Assembly: GCF_036321535.1 (NCBI RefSeq)
Contig: NC_087436.1
Span: 68,512,001-68,576,000 of the forward strand
Length of the DNA: 64,000 bases
From: Camelus dromedarius
Lineage: Eukaryota
Direction of reading: 5' to 3'
Within the stretch, counting starts at the first letter, position 1. Each line of letters opens with the position of its first letter. A program made the position numbers and the translations under genes. Below the pieces are notes generated by a model that searched no databases, was not told where the DNA came from, and worked only from the letters and a program-made list of their open reading frames with translations. Of this stretch, positions 2,151 to 63,399 are shown piece by piece.

Positions 2151-3205
2151 CACTTTTGAAGGACATAAATACCTATGTATATGTTCTTATGTAGAAAACT
2201 TAAATAACACAAAAAGATCAATTTTCACAAAATTACTATACAAATTAAATGTAATTTTTTAGTTAAAAACCCAATAAAATTTTATCAGAAATTAGATAAA
2301 ACTGAAAGTTTATAAGAAGAAAAAAGGTCTGAGAATGAAAGAATAGTGAATATCAATACCTTTATATCAGCACATATTATAAAACTACTAGTAAAGCAGT
2401 ACTGTGTTGACATCAAGAATAAAGAAATAAAACAAAATTCGAAAGTATATTGAATGATATGTGAGATTTAATACATGATGAAAGTAGCACATTCAAAGAG
2501 AATGAATTATTTAATTAATAAATAGACCTGGCACAACTGACCACCTGGGAAAAAAATTAAATTATAATATTATGTCACATTATATACCAAAACACATTCC
2601 AGATGGATTAAAAATTTAAATTAAAAAGAAAAAAAGATGTTAAGATGAAAATCTAAGATATTACATATACACTTAGGATAAAAAAGATCTTTTAACCAAA
2701 ACAGTAAACTCAAAAGCTGTAAAAGAAAAAAGCCACATATTTGACAATTAAAGTAAACTTATAAAAAGGTGTTCAAACTCAGTTATAATCACAGAAACAG
2801 ACACTAAAGTAACAATGAGATCATTTAATACTGATCAAACTGGCAAAAAAGTAGAATCATAAATAGCCTAGTAGGTAAGATTCTTACACTGCTGATATAA
2901 AAGAAAATTGGGAAAGCCTCTTCTGAAAGCGTGCACATGTACATACACATTTATATTTATTTATATATATATATGTTTTCACTCAGGAGAACCAATGAAG
3001 ATATGGAAGGATTCAAAAGCTATCTCAGCAGGATGAGGACAGTAACGATAAGTATCTTTTTCTTTTAAATCTTTGACTCTTACCTCAAATGAAGGACTTT
3101 TCTAATTTGAAAAAAATGCAAATAAAACTTTAAAAAGGAGCAGCACATATAACTGACTAAAAGAAACTGAACAAAATGGAGAAGAGAGAAAAAGAATACT
3201 GACCA

Positions 3206-3742
3206 CATATATGCAACTATCAAATCATTTATGTTGTATTACTGAAACTAATATAATGTTATATCAATTATACCTCAGTTAAAAAAAAACAAAAAACTGC
3301 TCAAGAAGCCACTGGAGAGGCCCACCTGGGAGGGAAGAAAGGCTTCCTGCCAGCAACCAGCCCCACATGAGTGAGACATCCTGGAAATATAGCCTTAGGC
3401 CCAGTCAAGCCTTCGGATGACTGCAACCCTGGCCAACATCTTGACTACCACCTCTTAAGAGATTACAAGCCAGAACCATCTAACTAAAGCTGCTTCTAAA
3501 TTCCTGACCCACAGAAACTGTGTGAGACAATAAATATTTATTGTTGTTCTGGAAAAAAAAAAAAAAAAACAGAAAAAAGAAATCTATTTTAAAACTCTTG
3601 AAGTTATGATCTCTGTAATAATTATTAGTTAATGTCTCTCACTACATCCTAATAAGCAACATTCCTACCACTAAAACAAAGAAAGAGATAATAGATAAAA
3701 CTTATTTCTCATGTCTAAAAAAACAAAAAAAAACAAAAAAAA
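3206..3742 (+). mobile_element. Composite retroposed insertion: L1 3' end + MLT1 LTR fragment + unique segment, with three A-tails
   Basis: Flanked by 15/17-identical direct repeats (3189-3205 and 3735-3751); see findings. Confidence 0.75.
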
Positions 3743-3907
3743 CACTGACCATGGATGTGAAAGGGAATCAAAAATAACTTCATCCATTCACAATTCTGCC
3801 CAGGCTGACCCTGACCTTGTCATTTAAGCGAGCATACATGTTACCTTCAGCATTTCTACCTTTCTAAATATATGTAGGCAAATATCACCCATGGAGGTGC
3901 TACAAAC

Positions 3908-4007
3908 CTGATTTGTTGACAACTTCACTTGGTTCTATAATTAACTGTAGGGAAGCTTCATTCTTTCTTGAAGAAACTGGGTCTGACTTTGAATGTGATT
4001 TCTGGCA
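3908..4007 (-). CDS. CENPC: CENP-C coding exon 5 (CQKSHSKSDPVSSRKNEASLQLIIEPSEVVNKS); gene continues left of the window
   Basis: actcag|TGC CAG...TCA G|gtttgt, 100 nt; matches recalled human CQKSHPKSVPVSSKKKEASLQFVVEPSEATNRS. An alternative acceptor would extend the exon to 4013. Confidence 0.9.
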
Positions 4008-4471
4008 CTGAGTCTAAAAAGAGATACAACATTAGATCTGCTCTATTAAATTACCAATTCTGATAAAACACATTTGCTTTTAAACTGAAAAAAAACAGTA
4101 TTTAAAAACAACAGATCAGCTGTTAAAGATGCAAGCTTAAATAACTACTTAGAAAACAATTTCACATTGTTTAGTAACACTGAAATTTCATATAAGCTAT
4201 CATAAAAACATTATTCTAATAGCTTTTAAAAACCTATTCTGACAGAAGATTGGATAAATTATGATATAGTCATATAACATAAAATTACAAATACAACAGT
4301 GAAATGAATAAACTACAGCAATATGAATGATTTAGCTAAACAACAAACAAGTTGCAGAAGTATATAATCTCATTTATGTAAAGCTCAGAACAGACACAAA
4401 AACATGAAAAACTATATATATACACACATATATAGTATTTAGAGATTCATTCTATGCAGAAGAAGTGTCAA

Positions 4472-19065: not shown

Positions 19066-19157
19066 TAATTTTTTTCCCTTAACAAAGGCACCGGGGATTG
19101 AACCCAGGACCTCATGAATGCCAAGCATACACTCTACCACTGAGCTATCCCTTGACC
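19066..19157 (-). mobile_element. tRNA-Ala-derived SINE (camelid Vic-1-like)
   Basis: ggggattgaacccaggacctc...ctctaccactgagctat; TSD ctcacatttgg at 19055-19065 and 19158-19168. Confidence 0.85.
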
Positions 19158-19179
19158 CTCACATTTGGAATAGATAACA

Positions 19180-20371: not shown

Positions 20372-20796
20372 CCATTTGCAGCAACATGGATGCTCCTGGA
20401 GAATGTCATTCTAAGTGAAGTAAGCCAGAAAGAGAAAGAAAAATACCATATGAGATCGCTCATATGTGGAATCTAAAAAACAAAAACAAACAAACAAACA
20501 AAAACAAAGCGTAAATAAAGGACAGAAATAGACTCACAGACAGAGAATACAGACTTGTGGTTACCAGGGGGGTGGAGGGTGGGAAGGGATAGACTGGGAT
20601 TTCAAAATTGTAGAATAGACTACACTGTATAGCATAGGGAAATATACACAAAATGTTATGATAACTCACAGAGAAAAAAATGTGACAATGAGTGTGTATA
20701 TGTCCATGAATGACTGAAAAATTGTGCTGAACACTGGAATTTGACACAACATTGTAAAATGATTATAAATCAATAAAAAATGTTAAAAAAAAAAAA
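20372..20796 (+). mobile_element. Young lineage-specific L1 3' end nested in an older L1 3' UTR (about 20180-21020)
   Basis: ccatttgcagcaacatggatg...aataaa plus uninterrupted A-tail; TSD aaaacta(g/t)aggaaca at 20357-20371 and 20797-20811. Confidence 0.88.
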
Positions 20797-21078
20797 AAAA
20801 CTATAGGAACAGAAATGAGATCAGTGATTGTCAGGGGATGAGGTCAGGGGGAAGGAGCCAGGAAGGAACTTTTTATGGTGGTGAAAATAATTCAAGTCTT
20901 GATTATGGTGGTAGTTACATGACTATACATATTTGTCAAAACTCCTGTAACTGTGCTTCTAGAAAAAAAAAAGATGACTTTTGCTGTAAATTATATCTCA
21001 ATAAACTTTACTTGAAAAATTAAGAACATGAGAGAGAGAAAAAAAAAAGCATATCAACCAAATGCAATGTGTGAATTT

Positions 21079-21178
21079 CAGTTTTACTAATTTTTTTAGT
21101 GGAGGTACTGGTGATTGAACCCAGGACCTCATGCAGGCTAAGCACACACTCTATCACTGAACTATACCCTACTCACCA
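21079..21178 (-). mobile_element. tRNA-Ala-derived SINE (Vic-1-like)
   Basis: ggaggtactggtgattgaacccaggacctc...actgaactataccct; TSD aatgtgtgaattt at 21066-21078 and 21179-21191. Confidence 0.85.
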
Positions 21179-26379: not shown

Positions 26380-26520
26380 AGGAGAGGGTATAGCTCAGTA
26401 GCAGAGTACGTGCCTAGCATGCACAAGGTCCTGGGTTCAATCCCCAGTACCTCCATTAAGAAACAATTAAATAAATAAACCTGATTACCTCCCCCTAAAC
26501 CCCCCCAACCCCCCAAAAAA
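26380..26520 (+). mobile_element. tRNA-Ala-derived SINE (Vic-1-like), full length
   Basis: gggtatagctcagtagcagagtacgtgcctagcatgcacaaggtcctgggttcaatccccagtacctcc (A and B boxes), then taaataaataaacctgattacctcccc and an A-tail. Confidence 0.9.
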
Positions 26521-34324: not shown

Positions 34325-35527
34325 GATTGCTGCAGGACTACTATCAATTTGTTCAAGGCTTGCTGTATGCACTTGGAAATGTGACTTTTCTGCTCTTTCC
34401 ATAAAGAAGTTGTGTCTATTGTTCTGCCCCTTGAATTTGGACTGGGTCATGCTTTGGCAAATGTGACAAAAGCAGAGGATTATACAGTGCTTGCACAGTG
34501 GGTTTTGCCCTGTTTTGCTCCTTGGCATCCTTCTGCCAGCACGTGAACAAGTCTAGGTCAGCTGACTGGAAGGTGAAACCACACGGAGTACGACTCCAGT
34601 TGTCTCACTGGGGTGTTTTCCATCAATTCTCTGATTCTCTGGACATCAACTGGGTATTCAACAATTCAGTTTAATTTTGATACTAACTACCTACCCAAAT
34701 TTAGGGCAGACCCCACAGCTTAGTTAAGAGCTGAGTCCACAAGACTGCCCACTACTTCAGTCACTAGTCACAAGTCCCAGACCTCCTGTGCTTCTGACTG
34801 ACTGGCGATAAATCAGGGGTTCCCATGACTCCCTCGTAAGATTTGATAATTTACTAGAATGGTTCACAGAACTCAGGAAGACACTTTGCTTACATCTACT
34901 GGTAAGGGGTACAATTGAACAGCCAGATGAAGAGGGCAAGGTCTGGAAGGGTCTCGAGCCCAGGTGTTTCTGTCTCTGTGGAGATGGGCTACACCACCCT
35001 TTTGGCATGTGGAAGCTCATCAAATCTTGCTGTTCAAGGTTTTTATAAAGCTTAATCTTCAGGCCCACTCCCTCCTTCTTCCTGAAGGTTGATGGGTGGG
35101 GCTGACAGTTCCAACCCTTTAATCATTTGTTCTTTTGGTGACCAGACCTATCCTGAAGCTATTTAGGGATCCCATCCTAAGTTACATCATTAGTATAAAT
35201 TCAAGTATGATGTAACGGGGCTCATTGTGAATAATAAAGACACTCCTATCACTTAGAAAATTCTAAGTGTTTTAGGATCTCTATGCCAGGAACTTGGGGA
35301 CTAAGACTAAATATACTTTTTATTATACTACACACACTCACTCTCCATTCCCAGCTGAAACCCCAATCAAGTGAGTGAGGGCACCCTAGACCATTCAGCC
35401 ACAGCCAAATATACCCAGATCCAGAGAATCATCAGCCAGCCACAGAATGATGAGAAATAGGTAATATTTGCTGTTTTACTCCACATGCTTTAGGGTGGCT
35501 TGTTACACCACAAAAACTAACTAATAT
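34325..35527 (+). mobile_element. MLT1-family (MaLR) LTR interrupted by a MER21 LTR
   Basis: gccccttgaatttggactggg...gctttggcaaatg; 3' end gctgttttact...tttagggtggcttgttacacc...aactaactaata. Confidence 0.7.
34609..35332 (-). mobile_element. MER21-family LTR
   Basis: aactgggtattcaacaattcagtttaattttgatactaactacc...ggggttcccatgactccctc...ctagaatggttcacagaactcagg. Confidence 0.8.
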
Positions 35528-36737
35528 AGCACCTTATCCACCATGAAAACAAAAGAAGGAAATAGTTCTATTAAGAACATGAGAAAGATGCTTGCTATAA
35601 TTCAGAGTGAATTTAATCTTGGGCTTCATGAGAGCCAAGGAAAATAAAAGTAAGACGGGTTATAGAATTCCCATTATTTGAGAAAATAAATATATAAATT
35701 CTGAAGAGGTGACAAATATTTTGCTGGTCAAAAGAAGGATAAATGATATGACAGTATTAAAAAAACACAAAATATCATAATATATAAGTGTCTTCATATT
35801 TATAAGCAAAAGAAAAACATTTCTTATGATTTTCTTACATTAATCGTCAATGTAAGTCAAGACAACCCAACATGTTACGAAAATTCAGCTTATTAAACTC
35901 TAAAGGAAGGAATGATCAACATTTCTATGAAACTGACTGGAGGTTTTTAAAACATACTTTTGCAAAGAGCTGAGTATGATGGTAAGTCTTTATATGTGGA
36001 AGAATTTTCTTGTATTCTTAAAATCCGCTTACCCTTCTTTTGTAATACAGCCAATCTTCATAGAATGTAAGTTCTTATCTAGGTAGCCTTTCACTTGAGT
36101 GAGTGTCTGACTGGGTAATTTAAATATTTTAAACTTAAAAAATTGTATTTCTATAGAACTCATAATAATGTGAATGTATTAATAATGAAATGTTCACCAC
36201 ATGAATGAAATTTGAACTTCAAAGTTCAGTTTTGATTGTTATTTTTATCATTATCAATTGCTCATATTTCTTTGACCTATATAAATATATATTCTGTTTA
36301 TTAAACCTAAACTATGAACCATGTACTGTGCTAAGTGATTTATGTGTATTTCACTCAGTCCTTTCAACTGTCTTGGAAGGAAGATACTAAATGCTTGTCT
36401 TAACCTGGCCCCTTATACAGGCCCCTCTTACAGGTGCAAGGTTCCACTGAAACTGCATAAAAAGTCAAGCATCTTAATGAGGAAAGTTTTGGAAAATGAT
36501 CTACTTAAACACAGATCAAATTACAACCCCACATCACACCTCATACTAAAATACATTTGTGAAGGATTTAACCAAGAATTAAATGTTACATTAAGCCATA
36601 AAAAGTGGGTGATTTATCTTACAGTAAAAAGGAAACTTATACCACACAGCAATTAAGAAAGTTACAAAGGGAAGTATCAAGAGGAAAATAGTTGAATGTA
36701 CACTAAGGAAATAATGCTTATAATTTCTTTCCTGCAG

Positions 36738-47009: not shown

Positions 47010-47818
47010 GTTCATTCACTCATTTCAACAAATGTTTATTGAGCCAAGTAATATTTGAGGTAGATGTACATGAGCAAACAAAGTAATATCCCTGGTGTAT
47101 AGTGTCTACATTCTTTAAAAAAATTTTTTTTGTTTGTTTGGGGAGGGGGATATTAATTTTTTATTATTTATTTATTTATTTATTCATTCATTCATTCATT
47201 CATTCATTTATTCATTTATTTAATGGAAGTACTGGGAATCAGACCCAGGACCTTGTGCATGCTAAGCATGTACTCTACCATTGAGTTATACCTTCCCCCA
47301 AGAGTCTACATTTTTGTAGGGAGACATAGACCATAAAAAAATACATAACTAAAAATATCATGGATATGATAATAAGTTTTATGGAAGTAAAATAAAGCAG
47401 GATGGGAGAGAGGAGAACTCTCAGAGGTGATACAGAGAGAAAGTGTTTCTGGTTGCTGTTGTTGTTTTAATACAGGGTGGTCAAGGAAGGCCTACTTTAT
47501 TAACCTACACTTAAGCAGAGACCTCAAGGAAGTTAGAGAATATAGCGTGTAAATATTTAGGATAAGAGCATTCCAGGCAAGAATCATAGATGCCTAGAGG
47601 TAGGAGAAGGCTTGGATTGTTCAAAAACAAGAAGATGCAGTGGACTGAGCAAGGAGAAAGAGGTAGATGAGATTCCAGAGGTGATGTAGGGGCTGATGGC
47701 TCTAAGCCATTCAGCTTATTGTGGAGAAAAGGGTTATGCTCTGAAGGACATGAGAGGCCCCTGGACTGTGATGAATAAAGAAGTGACATACTCTGACTTA
47801 ACCATAAAAAGAATCACT
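47010..47818 (+). mobile_element. LINE-2 fragment interrupted by a SINE
   Basis: ttcattcactcatttcaacaaatgtttattgag...gggtggtcaaggaaggcct...aagagcattccaggca...gtgacatactctgactta. Confidence 0.75.
47113..47300 (-). mobile_element. tRNA-Ala-derived SINE (Vic-1-like) with (ATTT)/(ATTC) microsatellite tail
   Basis: cccaggaccttgtgcatgctaagcatgtactctaccattgagttatacc; TSD ag(t/a)gtctacatt at 47101-47112 and 47301-47312. Confidence 0.85.
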
Positions 47819-52588: not shown

Positions 52589-54517
52589 GTAAGTAGCTAT
52601 TTCCTTATTGTTGATTAATTTTCTCCTGCTTCCTCCCAAAACTATCTTATAGAATACAAAGTAAGGTGGAAACGCATATTCCTTACCTAAGAAAATAGTG
52701 TTGGCAAAAACAGCCACGTTAGGAGGCCCCGAAGGTGGCAGACATACAGGGTGAGAAATGAGATGCGACAGCAGGTGAATGAGGCAGAGTAGAAGATAAT
52801 TTGCTAACAATTCTTTCCACTTCTCTGAAAATCTTCATCAAACAGTTGCCTCAGAGAGAGAAAAATATTTCTGTTAAGTATCTGTTTTACATCCTCTAAG
52901 TAGAAGTAATATTTCAATGTGTTTATCTCTAATGGGAAAAAATCTTTGAATGCCTAGTCCTCTAATACAGCAGTTGTATTATGTATCACACTATGCAGTT
53001 GTTCAGAAATTCCCCTCTTAATAGTGACAAAATAGTGAAGAAAGAATTTCTTCCTCATCTTCAACCCCTTTCCTATCCCAACCAACTTATCATAGGGCTA
53101 ATGATAAAATATCATAACCACTGCATACTGTTAGGCACAGAGCTAAATACTTTACACCATCTAATTTAATTTTTATCATTACCCTGAGGTAACACCTATT
53201 ACACAGGTGGAAAAACTGGTATTTACAGTGGTCTGTATTCTAGGGAAAGGGAATATAGCTCTGTGATCTTAGGCTGCAGTGGTGGGAAGATAGGGCCAGG
53301 GAAGTGACACCATTTAAATGGAAGCAATGGATCTTGAAGATATTCATGGTATCTTCTCTAAAACTGAGCTCCTAGTGCCTCTGCCTCCCCAGGCCCACTG
53401 TGTTGGTCAGAGAAAGGGAGTGTAGTGTTGAATTTCTTATGTTCTGACTATAACCCTCAGAGTGCAGTGTGACCTTTGCCAAGAGCCAGACAGCTGCTAC
53501 TTCATATACCCCACTTAGGTCTCTGCCATGTTTCCTAGAGCTTTTTAGTTCTCATGTCCATGCCTGAATGGGCTTTTCCATAAATTCTAATGAAGGAAAC
53601 AGAATTAGAATGCAGAAGGATAATCCAAATAACCAAGTGACTGGAAGCAATGGTCAGGGAAGACTGTCTCTGCAGCTGGTGAACTGGGGCTCATTCATCT
53701 GTCATTAGCCCAACAGCCCCCAGTGTAAGGAAAGCTAACACCCTGGATTGCTCTTTTACCTTTCATACTCCCCAACCGGGTTGTCATTTTGTGAATTCTT
53801 TTTTCTCTTCAAGTTTTCCAGGGATATTCAAGTTTAACCTGATTTTCCTTGCATAAAAATATTGGTTTACAGAGCAGCAAGACAATTCAGTTACTCCTAG
53901 CCAAGTAAATTATCCTGTTACAATGAGATATTAAAATGCTAAGTTTGCTGGCTTTAAAGGATTCTTCTGTTTCAAGCAGAAGAAACCAATTATGGCTAAC
54001 TGAAGCAAAAAAAAAAAAAAAGGACTTATTTTAGGAACACAGGAAGCACAAAGAATGACTGAAAGGCTTGAAAGCCTTCAGACACTAGGAAGTATTTACT
54101 GATACTAAGTATCATCTGATTAGGAGTCTGCTATCCTTTCTTGGTTCTCTATCAAGTTCAAATTTCTTGAAGGGTTTTTTTTTTGTTTGTTTGTTTTTTG
54201 TTTTTTTGGCCTAACTTGAGTCACATTCTCATGTAATAACAGGAAAATAGCAGGGTATCTAATTATTGTCCATCAAAATGTATCCAATGCGAAAGGTGTA
54301 ATTTCTCAACAGGGAATTAGATATGGCTATAAAGGAGAAATAAAATGCATGGGTAGGCAAAACCTTGGCCATTCAGTAACCCACTGAAGTGAGGAACTGA
54401 CACAATTTTCTGGAGATCAGGAAATACACAGTAATCTCCATTAACTTTCAGTTTAGTTTTCTCTTACTCTGTCTTTACACAGGTGACACCGAGTCTTCTC
54501 TCACTCTCTTTATACAG

Positions 54518-56149: not shown

Positions 56150-56450
56150 TGGATGATAGTATACATTATCTAATGCTGTGTAACAAATCACCCCTAAAAC
56201 ATGGTGGTTAAATCAACCACCATTTTATTTGCTTACGATTCTGCACATCAGCAATTTGAATTGGATTCAGTTGTATAGTTCTTTTGCTAGTCTCACTTGG
56301 TATCACTTACAGGACTATAACCAGTTGGTGGCTTGACGAGCTGGATGGTCCAAGTTGGCCTCATTCACACATCTAGTGCTGCTGGTCAGCTGGGGCTGGC
56401 TGATCCACCTTCATGTGCTCTCTAATCCTCTGAAGTTAGCCCAAGCTCTT
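56150..56450 (-). mobile_element. MLT1-family LTR fragment
   Basis: gctgtgtaacaaatcacccctaaaac...ttttatttgcttacgattctg...ctggatggtccaagttggcctcattcac. Confidence 0.7.
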
Positions 56451-56599
56451 TCACGTTAAGGAGAGAAGGGTTGGTGCACATCCTTGGGCTACAAATTCTT
56501 AGTGTTGAGAATAAAGTATGGCCTTCTTGGAACTTTTAGTAAAGGAGAAACTGAATTGAATAAATAATTCCAAGTGTGATTTGTCTTATGTACAGGGGC

Positions 56600-59140: not shown

Positions 59141-59587
59141 TTTAGCCTTAATCTTTGAATTAATCTTCTGACCCAGGGTCTGGCACAGAGTGGATGATGT
59201 TGGTATAATAAATTGGTGAATCCCCAAGCATAGTATTGGAGGAGGAAGCAACATTCTCTGCTTCCTAGAGGAAAAATGTCACTCCCAGAAACACAAAAGG
59301 ACCATCGCAAGTAACTATTCACCTACTACATTCTTGGCATTATGTGAAGTCCCAGGATTACATCATCTCATTTTATTGCTCCCAACAATCTTACAAGGAA
59401 GATACTATTATTTCTATTTTATGATCAAAAAAAGCAACACTTCAGTTTTCACACAAAGCTAGTAAATGAAGCTGAAACCCAAACCCATGTTTATTTTTGA
59501 ACTTTTTAAAAAAAACCTTCTCAGTGGTTCTGCATCTCCAGTGATAGATATTCATATTCTCTCTCCCCTCACTTCATCCTTTCCTGT

Positions 59588-59905
59588 GTCTGTGGGTTAA
59601 GAGTCTGGGCCTGACTTAGTTGGGTCTTTCGCAAATTTGCAATCAAGGTGTTGGCTAGGCTGGGTTGTCACCTGAGACTTCAGCAAGAAGGATCTACTCA
59701 CTCAGGTTGTTTGGAGAATTCACTTCCTTGCAGTTCTAGGATTCATAGCAGCTGGCTTCTTCAAAGATAGCAATGAAGTAGGTGGAGGTGGGCGTGAAGG
59801 AAGGAGGGACTACTAAGTAAATCTACTGGTAAGGAGGAGTCTTACATAATGTAACATAACCATGGTACTGACATCCCATCACTTTTGCATATTCTGTCAG
59901 TTACA
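59588..59905 (-). mobile_element. MLT1-family LTR fragment
   Basis: gcaatcaaggtgttggctaggctggg...ctcactcaggttgttggagaattcacttccttgcagtt...catcccatcacttttgcatattct. Confidence 0.65.
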
Positions 59906-62704: not shown

Positions 62705-62939
62705 TAAAGATGTGTCTTTATAAGAGGAGAGAAGGACACACACACAGAGGAAAGACCATGTGAGACAGAGGGAGAAGACAACCATCAACAAAGCCAATGA
62801 GAAAGGCCTCAGAAGAAATCAGCTCTACTGACACATTGATCTTAGACTTACAGCTTCTGGAACTGTAAGAAATAAATTTCTGTTGTTTAAGCCACTAAGT
62901 CTATGCTATTTGTTATGGCAGTCCTAGCAAACAAATTCA
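62705..62939 (+). mobile_element. MLT1A-like MaLR LTR downstream of STAP1
   Basis: gaaaggcctcagaagaaatc...ttgatcttagacttacagcttctggaactgtaagaaataaatttctgttgtttaagccac...ttgttatggcagtcctagcaaac. Confidence 0.82.
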
Positions 62940-63399
62940 ATGAGTTATCTGGGATACCTGAATATATGCAGAATCCTAAGATGCCCTCAGACTTCCTGAA
63001 TTAATTCTGGGGGCTGGTCCAGAAACCTGCTCTTTTAAAACACACCACAATAAAGTTTGTGAAATACTTCTTTAAAATCTACTGTAATACTAGTGTGTTA
63101 ACTGATGTGTAGATTACAAAAGATCTATTCTCTTATTCCCAACGGCCTCACAATTAAGTTAGTCCAAATACAGATAAGCAACAAGAGACTTAAGAGTGCC
63201 AATTTGTTACCATCTCTAAATGTTAAAGGTGAATTCCTGCAATCTAAAAGAAATGCAGTTCTTAACACAGAACGTTTGGAAAAAAAAAAAAAAAGGACTC
63301 CTAAAGATGGTGAGGCAATGTGGTTGATTGAAATAAAGTAAAAAGAAATGGACAAGGGAGACAGAGATCAAAGCCCAGGGCCTGTCCAAGGTGGAGAAT

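Follow-up and report, generated by a model that had tools for sequence, protein, structure and literature searches.

Multigenerational L1 3' transduction has been described in humans, where a cascade that ran from chrX to chr15 to chr11 gave rise to a product with tags from two earlier loci, and orphan transductions that end at a downstream signal have been described as well (PMC13009371). L1 transduction families with internal tails are also on record (PMC6425141, PMC5668948), and traceable 3' transductions were found in 121 of 4,118 L1 insertions (PMC5668948). The confirmation rule for a transduction is that a source locus lies 3' of an L1 and is without the tail (PMC3024322), and the sequential versus simultaneous arrival of neighbouring insertions can be distinguished by cross-species alignment (PMC13174262). 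Plus-strand LTR poly(A) sites, foremost those of the MaLR elements, are used by human transcripts (PMC2553571). For camelids, the accessible text of a repeat survey mentions transduction once, in general terms (PMC8605555), and no study of transduction in camelids was found in our literature search, which had most subscription journals outside its coverage.

The block analysed here is about 560 bases long, lies in a 64-kb window (the whole stretch of DNA that was analysed, 64,000 nucleotides) and consists of three modules, each followed by an A-rich tail, inside one pair of direct repeats. It is a real but dead stack, probably produced by L1 machinery in more than one round, and its events can be placed in more than one order. 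Based on the anatomy of this one locus, the block appears to work like an L1 3' transduction, and its membership of the serial partnered class, for which the donors and a single arrival are the defining points, is plausible. The features that it has in common with the human cascade are an L1 end (presumed in the block), internal tails and two non-L1 tags in one duplication; however, source, intermediate and product were all mapped in that cascade, whereas the block is known from one locus alone, is old, germline and camelid, and has an LTR piece as its first tag (PMC13009371). It likewise resembles the L1 transduction families in that an internal poly(A) tract stands before the flank, a second tail follows and the duplication is of 9–18 nt, but those families are young human elements with sequenced members, and no family member in a legible context was found for the block (PMC6425141, PMC5668948). 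As in transcripts that use the poly(A) sites of MaLR/MLT1 LTRs, cleavage took place at a plus-strand LTR signal, the difference being that the record in the block is a genomic tail rather than a live mRNA end (PMC2553571). If serial transduction is the true history, the block would preserve two ancestral loci in compact form and be a case of multigenerational transduction in camelids. It might be of use as a presence/absence marker, and it changes no mechanism.

Host gene and anatomy of the block

On its − strand the window contains the 5' half of CENPC; its + strand has STAP1-like exons, which we take to be those of STAP1. Five CENPC exons were found in order. The exon 4 and exon 5 peptides of the window are identical to those of a Camelus CENPC protein (P0004), the alpaca CENPC record (P0043) has one different residue in exon 4, and a search with a 43-aa frame over exon 4 identified 85 proteins among 87 candidates, nearly all of which are named CENP-C. 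Judged by these peptides, the host gene is the CENPC of a camelid. The distance from the start of intron 5 to the block is 156 nt, and the block is antisense to the gene. A degenerate exon-5 pattern, which matches the window once, had 0 matches in metagenome contigs. Two minor observations were made on the gene itself. In exon 5, at 4007–4013 (−), there are tandem acceptors 6 nt apart, and mammalian records vary in keeping the two extra residues. In addition, the dromedary CENPC model P0001 reads through the exon 4 donor and takes upstream promoter sequence as coding, and two residues there differ from the window; it is probably a mis-predicted gene model.

Table 1. Features of the block and of the adjacent CENPC exon, in positions of the window.
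Feature	Position	Strand	Description
Outer repeat, left copy AAAAAGAATACTGACCA	3189..3205	+	Probable target-site duplication; GAGAG precedes
Module 1	3206..3280	+	75-nt AT-rich piece; no AATAAA
Tail 1	3281..3297	+	A9 C A6 C, with TT before (canonical L1 endonuclease site); candidate left inner-repeat copy
Module 2	3298..3552	+	3' part of MLT1-type (MaLR) LTR (family name presumed), 48% GC; AATAAA 3529–3534, cut 18 nt later
Perfect palindrome	3527..3544	.	AATAAA on both strands: 3529–3534 (+), 3542–3537 (−)
Tail 2	3553..3579	+	A17 (3553–3569), then CAGAAAAAAG
Module 3	3580..3716	+	137 nt, 26% GC; AATAGA at 3690, GATAAA at 3694
Tail 3	3717..3734	+	A7 C A9 C
Candidate right inner-repeat copy	3725..3743	+	A9 C A8 C
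Outer repeat, right copy AAAAAAAACACTGACCA	3735..3751	+	15/17 versus left copy
CENPC exon 5	3908..4013	−	Host gene; block antisense in the following intron

The coordinates given in the original prediction for the outer repeat, the tails and the signals (Table 1) were all correct when the sequence was rechecked. All three tails have the same orientation, and the two segments that follow module 1 are separated by internal tails and share that orientation. Under every model considered here, the three tails are three poly(A)-primed events. Module 1 is presumably the 3' end of an L1 from an older laurasiatherian family, and we take it to be unlike the younger-looking L1 end at 20560–20800. When it was compared with nine in-window stretches taken for L1 ends, the best p value, uncorrected, was 0.024. 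The frame over module 1 had no match in a protein search, motif scans of viral contigs and prokaryote genome contigs gave 0 matches, and a self-search revealed no second copy of either module 1 or module 3 within the window.

Module 2 had been described as an MLT1-type LTR piece that was cut shortly after its AATAAA and had lost the normal LTR end, and this description was borne out by comparison with LTRs in the window, the family being presumed to be MLT1. In comparisons with the LTRs at 56150–56460(−) and 59560–59900(−), module 2 in each case scored above 300 of 300 shuffles; two further in-window LTR-like stretches gave weaker matches (p = 0.023 and 0.080) and a fifth stretch did not match (p = 0.80). 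Three in-window LTR ends (62860–62945 +, 35440–35535 +, and 56150–56250 −) were alignable for ~60 nt beyond the position of the signal, whereas module 2 was alignable for only 18 nt. The complete LTR 3' end is thus not present in module 2, ~45 nt that these three LTR ends share being missing. The sole + strand AATAAA in the block, at 3529, is 18 nt before tail 2. Only five runs of at least 15 A or T are present in the window (~0.0008 per 21-nt slot), and given this rarity the position of the A17 tail after the LTR signal is not a matter of chance. Since the tail starts 18 nt after the AATAAA while other LTR ends run on, at least one RNA ended at the LTR poly(A) site, and we infer, with good support, that an RNA ending at this site was once reverse-transcribed. 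When plasmid, phage and E. coli sequences were searched by blastn with the block or with module 2, one 33-nt chance match was the only result.

Module 3 has no similar sequence elsewhere in the window and no canonical poly(A) signal. In the 10–35 nt before the two later tails, a signal was present for tail 2, and for tail 3 there were variants only. These variants, the AATAGA/GATAAA at 3690–3699, had been put forward as the signals of tail 3; they are indeed present, but as evidence of polyadenylation they are no better than chance, given that one of 12 variant hexamers is present in 30% of the window's 2,284 AT-rich slots of 26 nt. The possibility that module 3 is a displaced or inverted LTR end was rejected (best p 0.04 among 10 comparisons).

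Direct repeats and the order of insertion

The 15/17 direct repeat predicted to surround the three A-tailed modules was confirmed in the sequence and is beyond chance, with a full match of this kind obtained in 30 of 20,000 simulated flanks (0.0015) and a match to its 8-base core in 0.052 of them (second-order Markov null, upstream 940 nt). On the two strands together, 185 A-run ends were tested (runs of at least 6 A whose next 9 bases were not A-rich, with a partner sought 60–1000 nt upstream), and the sole one with such an upstream partner was that of the outer repeat of the block. Tail 3 is situated directly before the right copy, as expected of an L1 insertion by target-primed reverse transcription (TPRT), and the outer repeat, whose length is within the ~7–20 nt typical of such insertions, has the behaviour of a target-site duplication. 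The left copy does not have a canonical TT/AAAA nick site, as GAGAG stands before 3189, and the canonical TT/AAAA is instead found at tail 1. TT/AAAA is a preference of the endonuclease and not an absolute rule, and the outer site is old, which is a caveat on the missing motif. A view in which there is no single unit at all, but old independent pieces with A-rich decay and an outer repeat that arose by chance, could appeal to the choice of that repeat after the fact from 64 kb, to the occurrence of its core by chance in 5% of simulated flanks and to the identity of module 1, which is presumed. It is at odds, however, with the rarity of the full outer match, the A17 at poly(A)-site distance and the missing LTR end, and we regard it as improbable.

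A two-round history in some form, in which the MLT1 piece was copied beside module 3 at another locus beforehand, is fairly probable. The form proposed in the original prediction was serial transduction. In round 1, the transcript of an L1 whose poly(A) signal was weak would have entered a neighbouring, sense-oriented MLT1 LTR, with cleavage at the poly(A) site of that LTR, and the resulting copy (L1, tail 1, MLT1 piece and tail 2) would have been placed at a second locus. In round 2, transcription of the second-locus copy would have gone on beyond tail 2 and taken in 137 nt of new flank, with polyadenylation giving tail 3. A copy of this RNA would then have been inserted in CENPC intron 5, with reverse transcription ending after 75 nt of the L1 and the 17-nt duplication as the mark of the insertion. 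Such a history would comprise a single insertion event at this locus, with the L1 stub as the driver and with two donor loci. The proposal was supported by the TSD-like repeat, by the LTR piece at poly(A)-site distance and by the evidence for several poly(A)-primed events, but it had overlooked a close rival with two layers of insertion, which is built on an inner repeat (3281–3297 / 3725–3743). In addition, it is a requirement of serial transduction that the daughter read through a canonical AATAAA and a 17-A tail, and this was counted against it, as was the absence of a canonical signal from module 3. We consider a single insertion by serial partnered L1 3' transduction to be a substantial possibility, with a chance somewhat below even.

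The inner repeat was apparent from a comparison of the tails. Positions 3281–3296 of tail 1 are identical to 3725–3740 at 16 of 16 bases and both sequences continue to a C after the second A-run, this pair of tail 1 and tail 3 having been chosen after several tail pairs were compared; tail 1 (3281–3296) also matches the end of tail 2 (3561–3576) at 15 of 16 bases. Runs of at least 8 A that are followed by C and four A made up 3 of 4 inside the block versus 0 of 47 outside it, which favours a nested insertion. The looser pattern A6+ C A5+ C was found three times inside the block and twice among the other 212 A-runs of the window, one of these two being in the unrelated tail at 54193–54207(−). 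These data are no more than suggestive of a real duplication. If the inner repeat is real, a short L1 stub may have arrived first and modules 2 and 3 (427 nt) later, into the tail of the stub.

Retrocopies are known to be nested in older poly(A) tails. The likeness of the block to such copies and to orphan transductions (PMC13009371) is an A-rich inner repeat, with TT before it, around modules 2 and 3, although the candidate inner repeat is low in complexity. Under a history of this type, a 75-nt L1 stub with a short tail would have made the outer duplication, and an orphan two-tailed unit (3298–3724) would later have entered the TT/AAAA of the stub's tail, duplicating 3281–3297 as 3725–3743. 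The orphan unit would be made up of the MLT1 piece, tail 2, module 3 and a short tail, and would still record two rounds, with the stub as a bystander. Supporting such a history are the identity of the two inner copies at 16 of 16 bases and their common final C, the canonical TT before the left inner copy that is absent at the outer site, and the excess of the looser pattern in the block. Conversely, the inner repeat is almost all A, and the occurrence of the same pattern in an unrelated tail and the near match of tail 2 indicate that matches arise easily; furthermore, a second insertion would have to have hit a 17-nt tail. This two-layer history fits about as well as serial transduction, and we rate it as possible but on the unlikely side. 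Three tails in one duplication are no proof of serial transduction, as an A-rich inner duplication gives the same picture. Our ranking of these histories is a matter of judgement, in which the higher prior of serial transduction was weighed against the inner repeat.

The 15/16 match between tail 1 and the end of tail 2, together with the TT before tail 1, would also allow an ordinary single transduction (stub, tail, module 3 and tail 3) that was afterwards interrupted by the 5'-truncated retrocopy of an RNA ending at an MLT1 poly(A) site, in which case tail 1 and the tail 2 end would be the duplication and no serial transduction would have occurred. That match is weaker than the one between tail 1 and tail 3, which would be left unexplained, and it depends on one C, so this splitting is, in our view, very unlikely. 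Host RNAs are also copied in trans by L1 machinery. If a host transcript that was not driven by an L1 already had the stub, the tailed MLT1 piece and module 3 at its 3' end, its retrocopy would yield the same anatomy in one insertion; such a retrocopy shifts the assembly to the donor without explaining it, and we deem it quite unlikely.

Related copies of the LTR piece

In a HMMER search with the 38-codon frame of module 2 there were six matches, of which P0087 (2753 aa, a repetitive match) was left out of the comparisons. The translated matches to module 2 are P0086, P0088–P0091 and P0093, the last of which is a more distant copy and was the sole addition from a profile search. P0086 is a spurious 57-aa frame on a 2370-nt contig. 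It has the same residue as module 2 at 40 of 54 codons, the match being spread over two frames that a single small indel separates, and by simulation its DNA divergence is ~13% (12–15%; edges 8% and 20%), a divergence of 25% having reached the match in 0.002 of trials. In the shared 26-codon core P0086 scores 21 and the other four copies 17–19, and among the compared copies it is the only one to have both DYHL and RDYKP in common with module 2; P0086 was the best of a very large search and its closeness is consequently biased upward. For comparison, P0002, an orthologous read-through frame of another mammal, has an intron-only segment that is 60% identical over 43 residues. For the same locus in another camelid, P0086 is too diverged, yet it is closer than the other copies, and it therefore probably carries the same LTR insertion, whether this is a donor, a sibling or, in another mammal, an orthologue. 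Indeed, it may be the same CENPC intron in another mammal and not a donor. As far as translated similarity can tell, a closely related copy of this LTR piece is present elsewhere. Scans of viral contigs for L1 ORF2 and for P0086 identified nothing real, L002 being an 8-residue chance match.

The two mismatches in the 17-nt outer repeat, together with the distance to P0086, suggest that the block is tens of millions of years old, with a wide error. We speculate that the block could belong to an old L1 transduction family of camelids, in which an MLT1 poly(A) module was passed on through several generations, with P0086 as a donor or sibling, but this is unlikely.

Module 2 was additionally compared with the end of the contig L001, and 99 of 130 aligned bases were identical. 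This contig was chosen by an exact 20-mer LTR motif, which was found at one contig end, and it stops at the signal, so that it is uninformative on the LTR end. L001 is a bacterial-looking metagenome contig that ends, at 1415–1529, in ~115 nt of mammalian LTR-type sequence, and is likely to be a chimeric join with host DNA.

CENPC transcripts and other repeats in the window

The block has no evident function, and only an effect on CENPC transcripts would lift it above the ordinary. On the CENPC sense strand, the tails are U-rich tracts before AG (3550–3549 and 3716–3715), and the AATAAA of the palindrome is 6 nt after the first of these. At 3527–3569 (−), tail 2 accordingly reads as a long U tract that is followed by CCAG and then by the palindrome AATAAA, an arrangement that could amount to a cryptic acceptor together with a poly(A) signal in the intron. 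Exonisation in annotated proteins was rejected, as 0 of 85 CENPC proteins match 3150–3900. It is highly improbable that the block is both a member of a transduction family of the type speculated on above and, through its palindromic signal, an intronic terminal exon from which camelids make a short N-terminal CENP-C.

Other repeats in the window were noted as well. Between 20355 and 20800 (+) a young-looking L1 3' piece with a 16-A tail is situated inside an older L1 3' region, with a candidate A-rich duplication (ACTACATAAAA / ACTATAGGAA). An MLT1-type LTR at 34360–35530 is apparently split by an inserted repeat (~34610–35330), the families of both being presumed. At 1070–2160 an old + strand L1 is broken by inverted L1 pieces and an LTR-like stretch (~1575–1925). 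Short tRNA-like SINE copies, which we take to belong to a camelid family, are present at 19080–19160, 21090–21175, 26380–26500 and 47140–47300.
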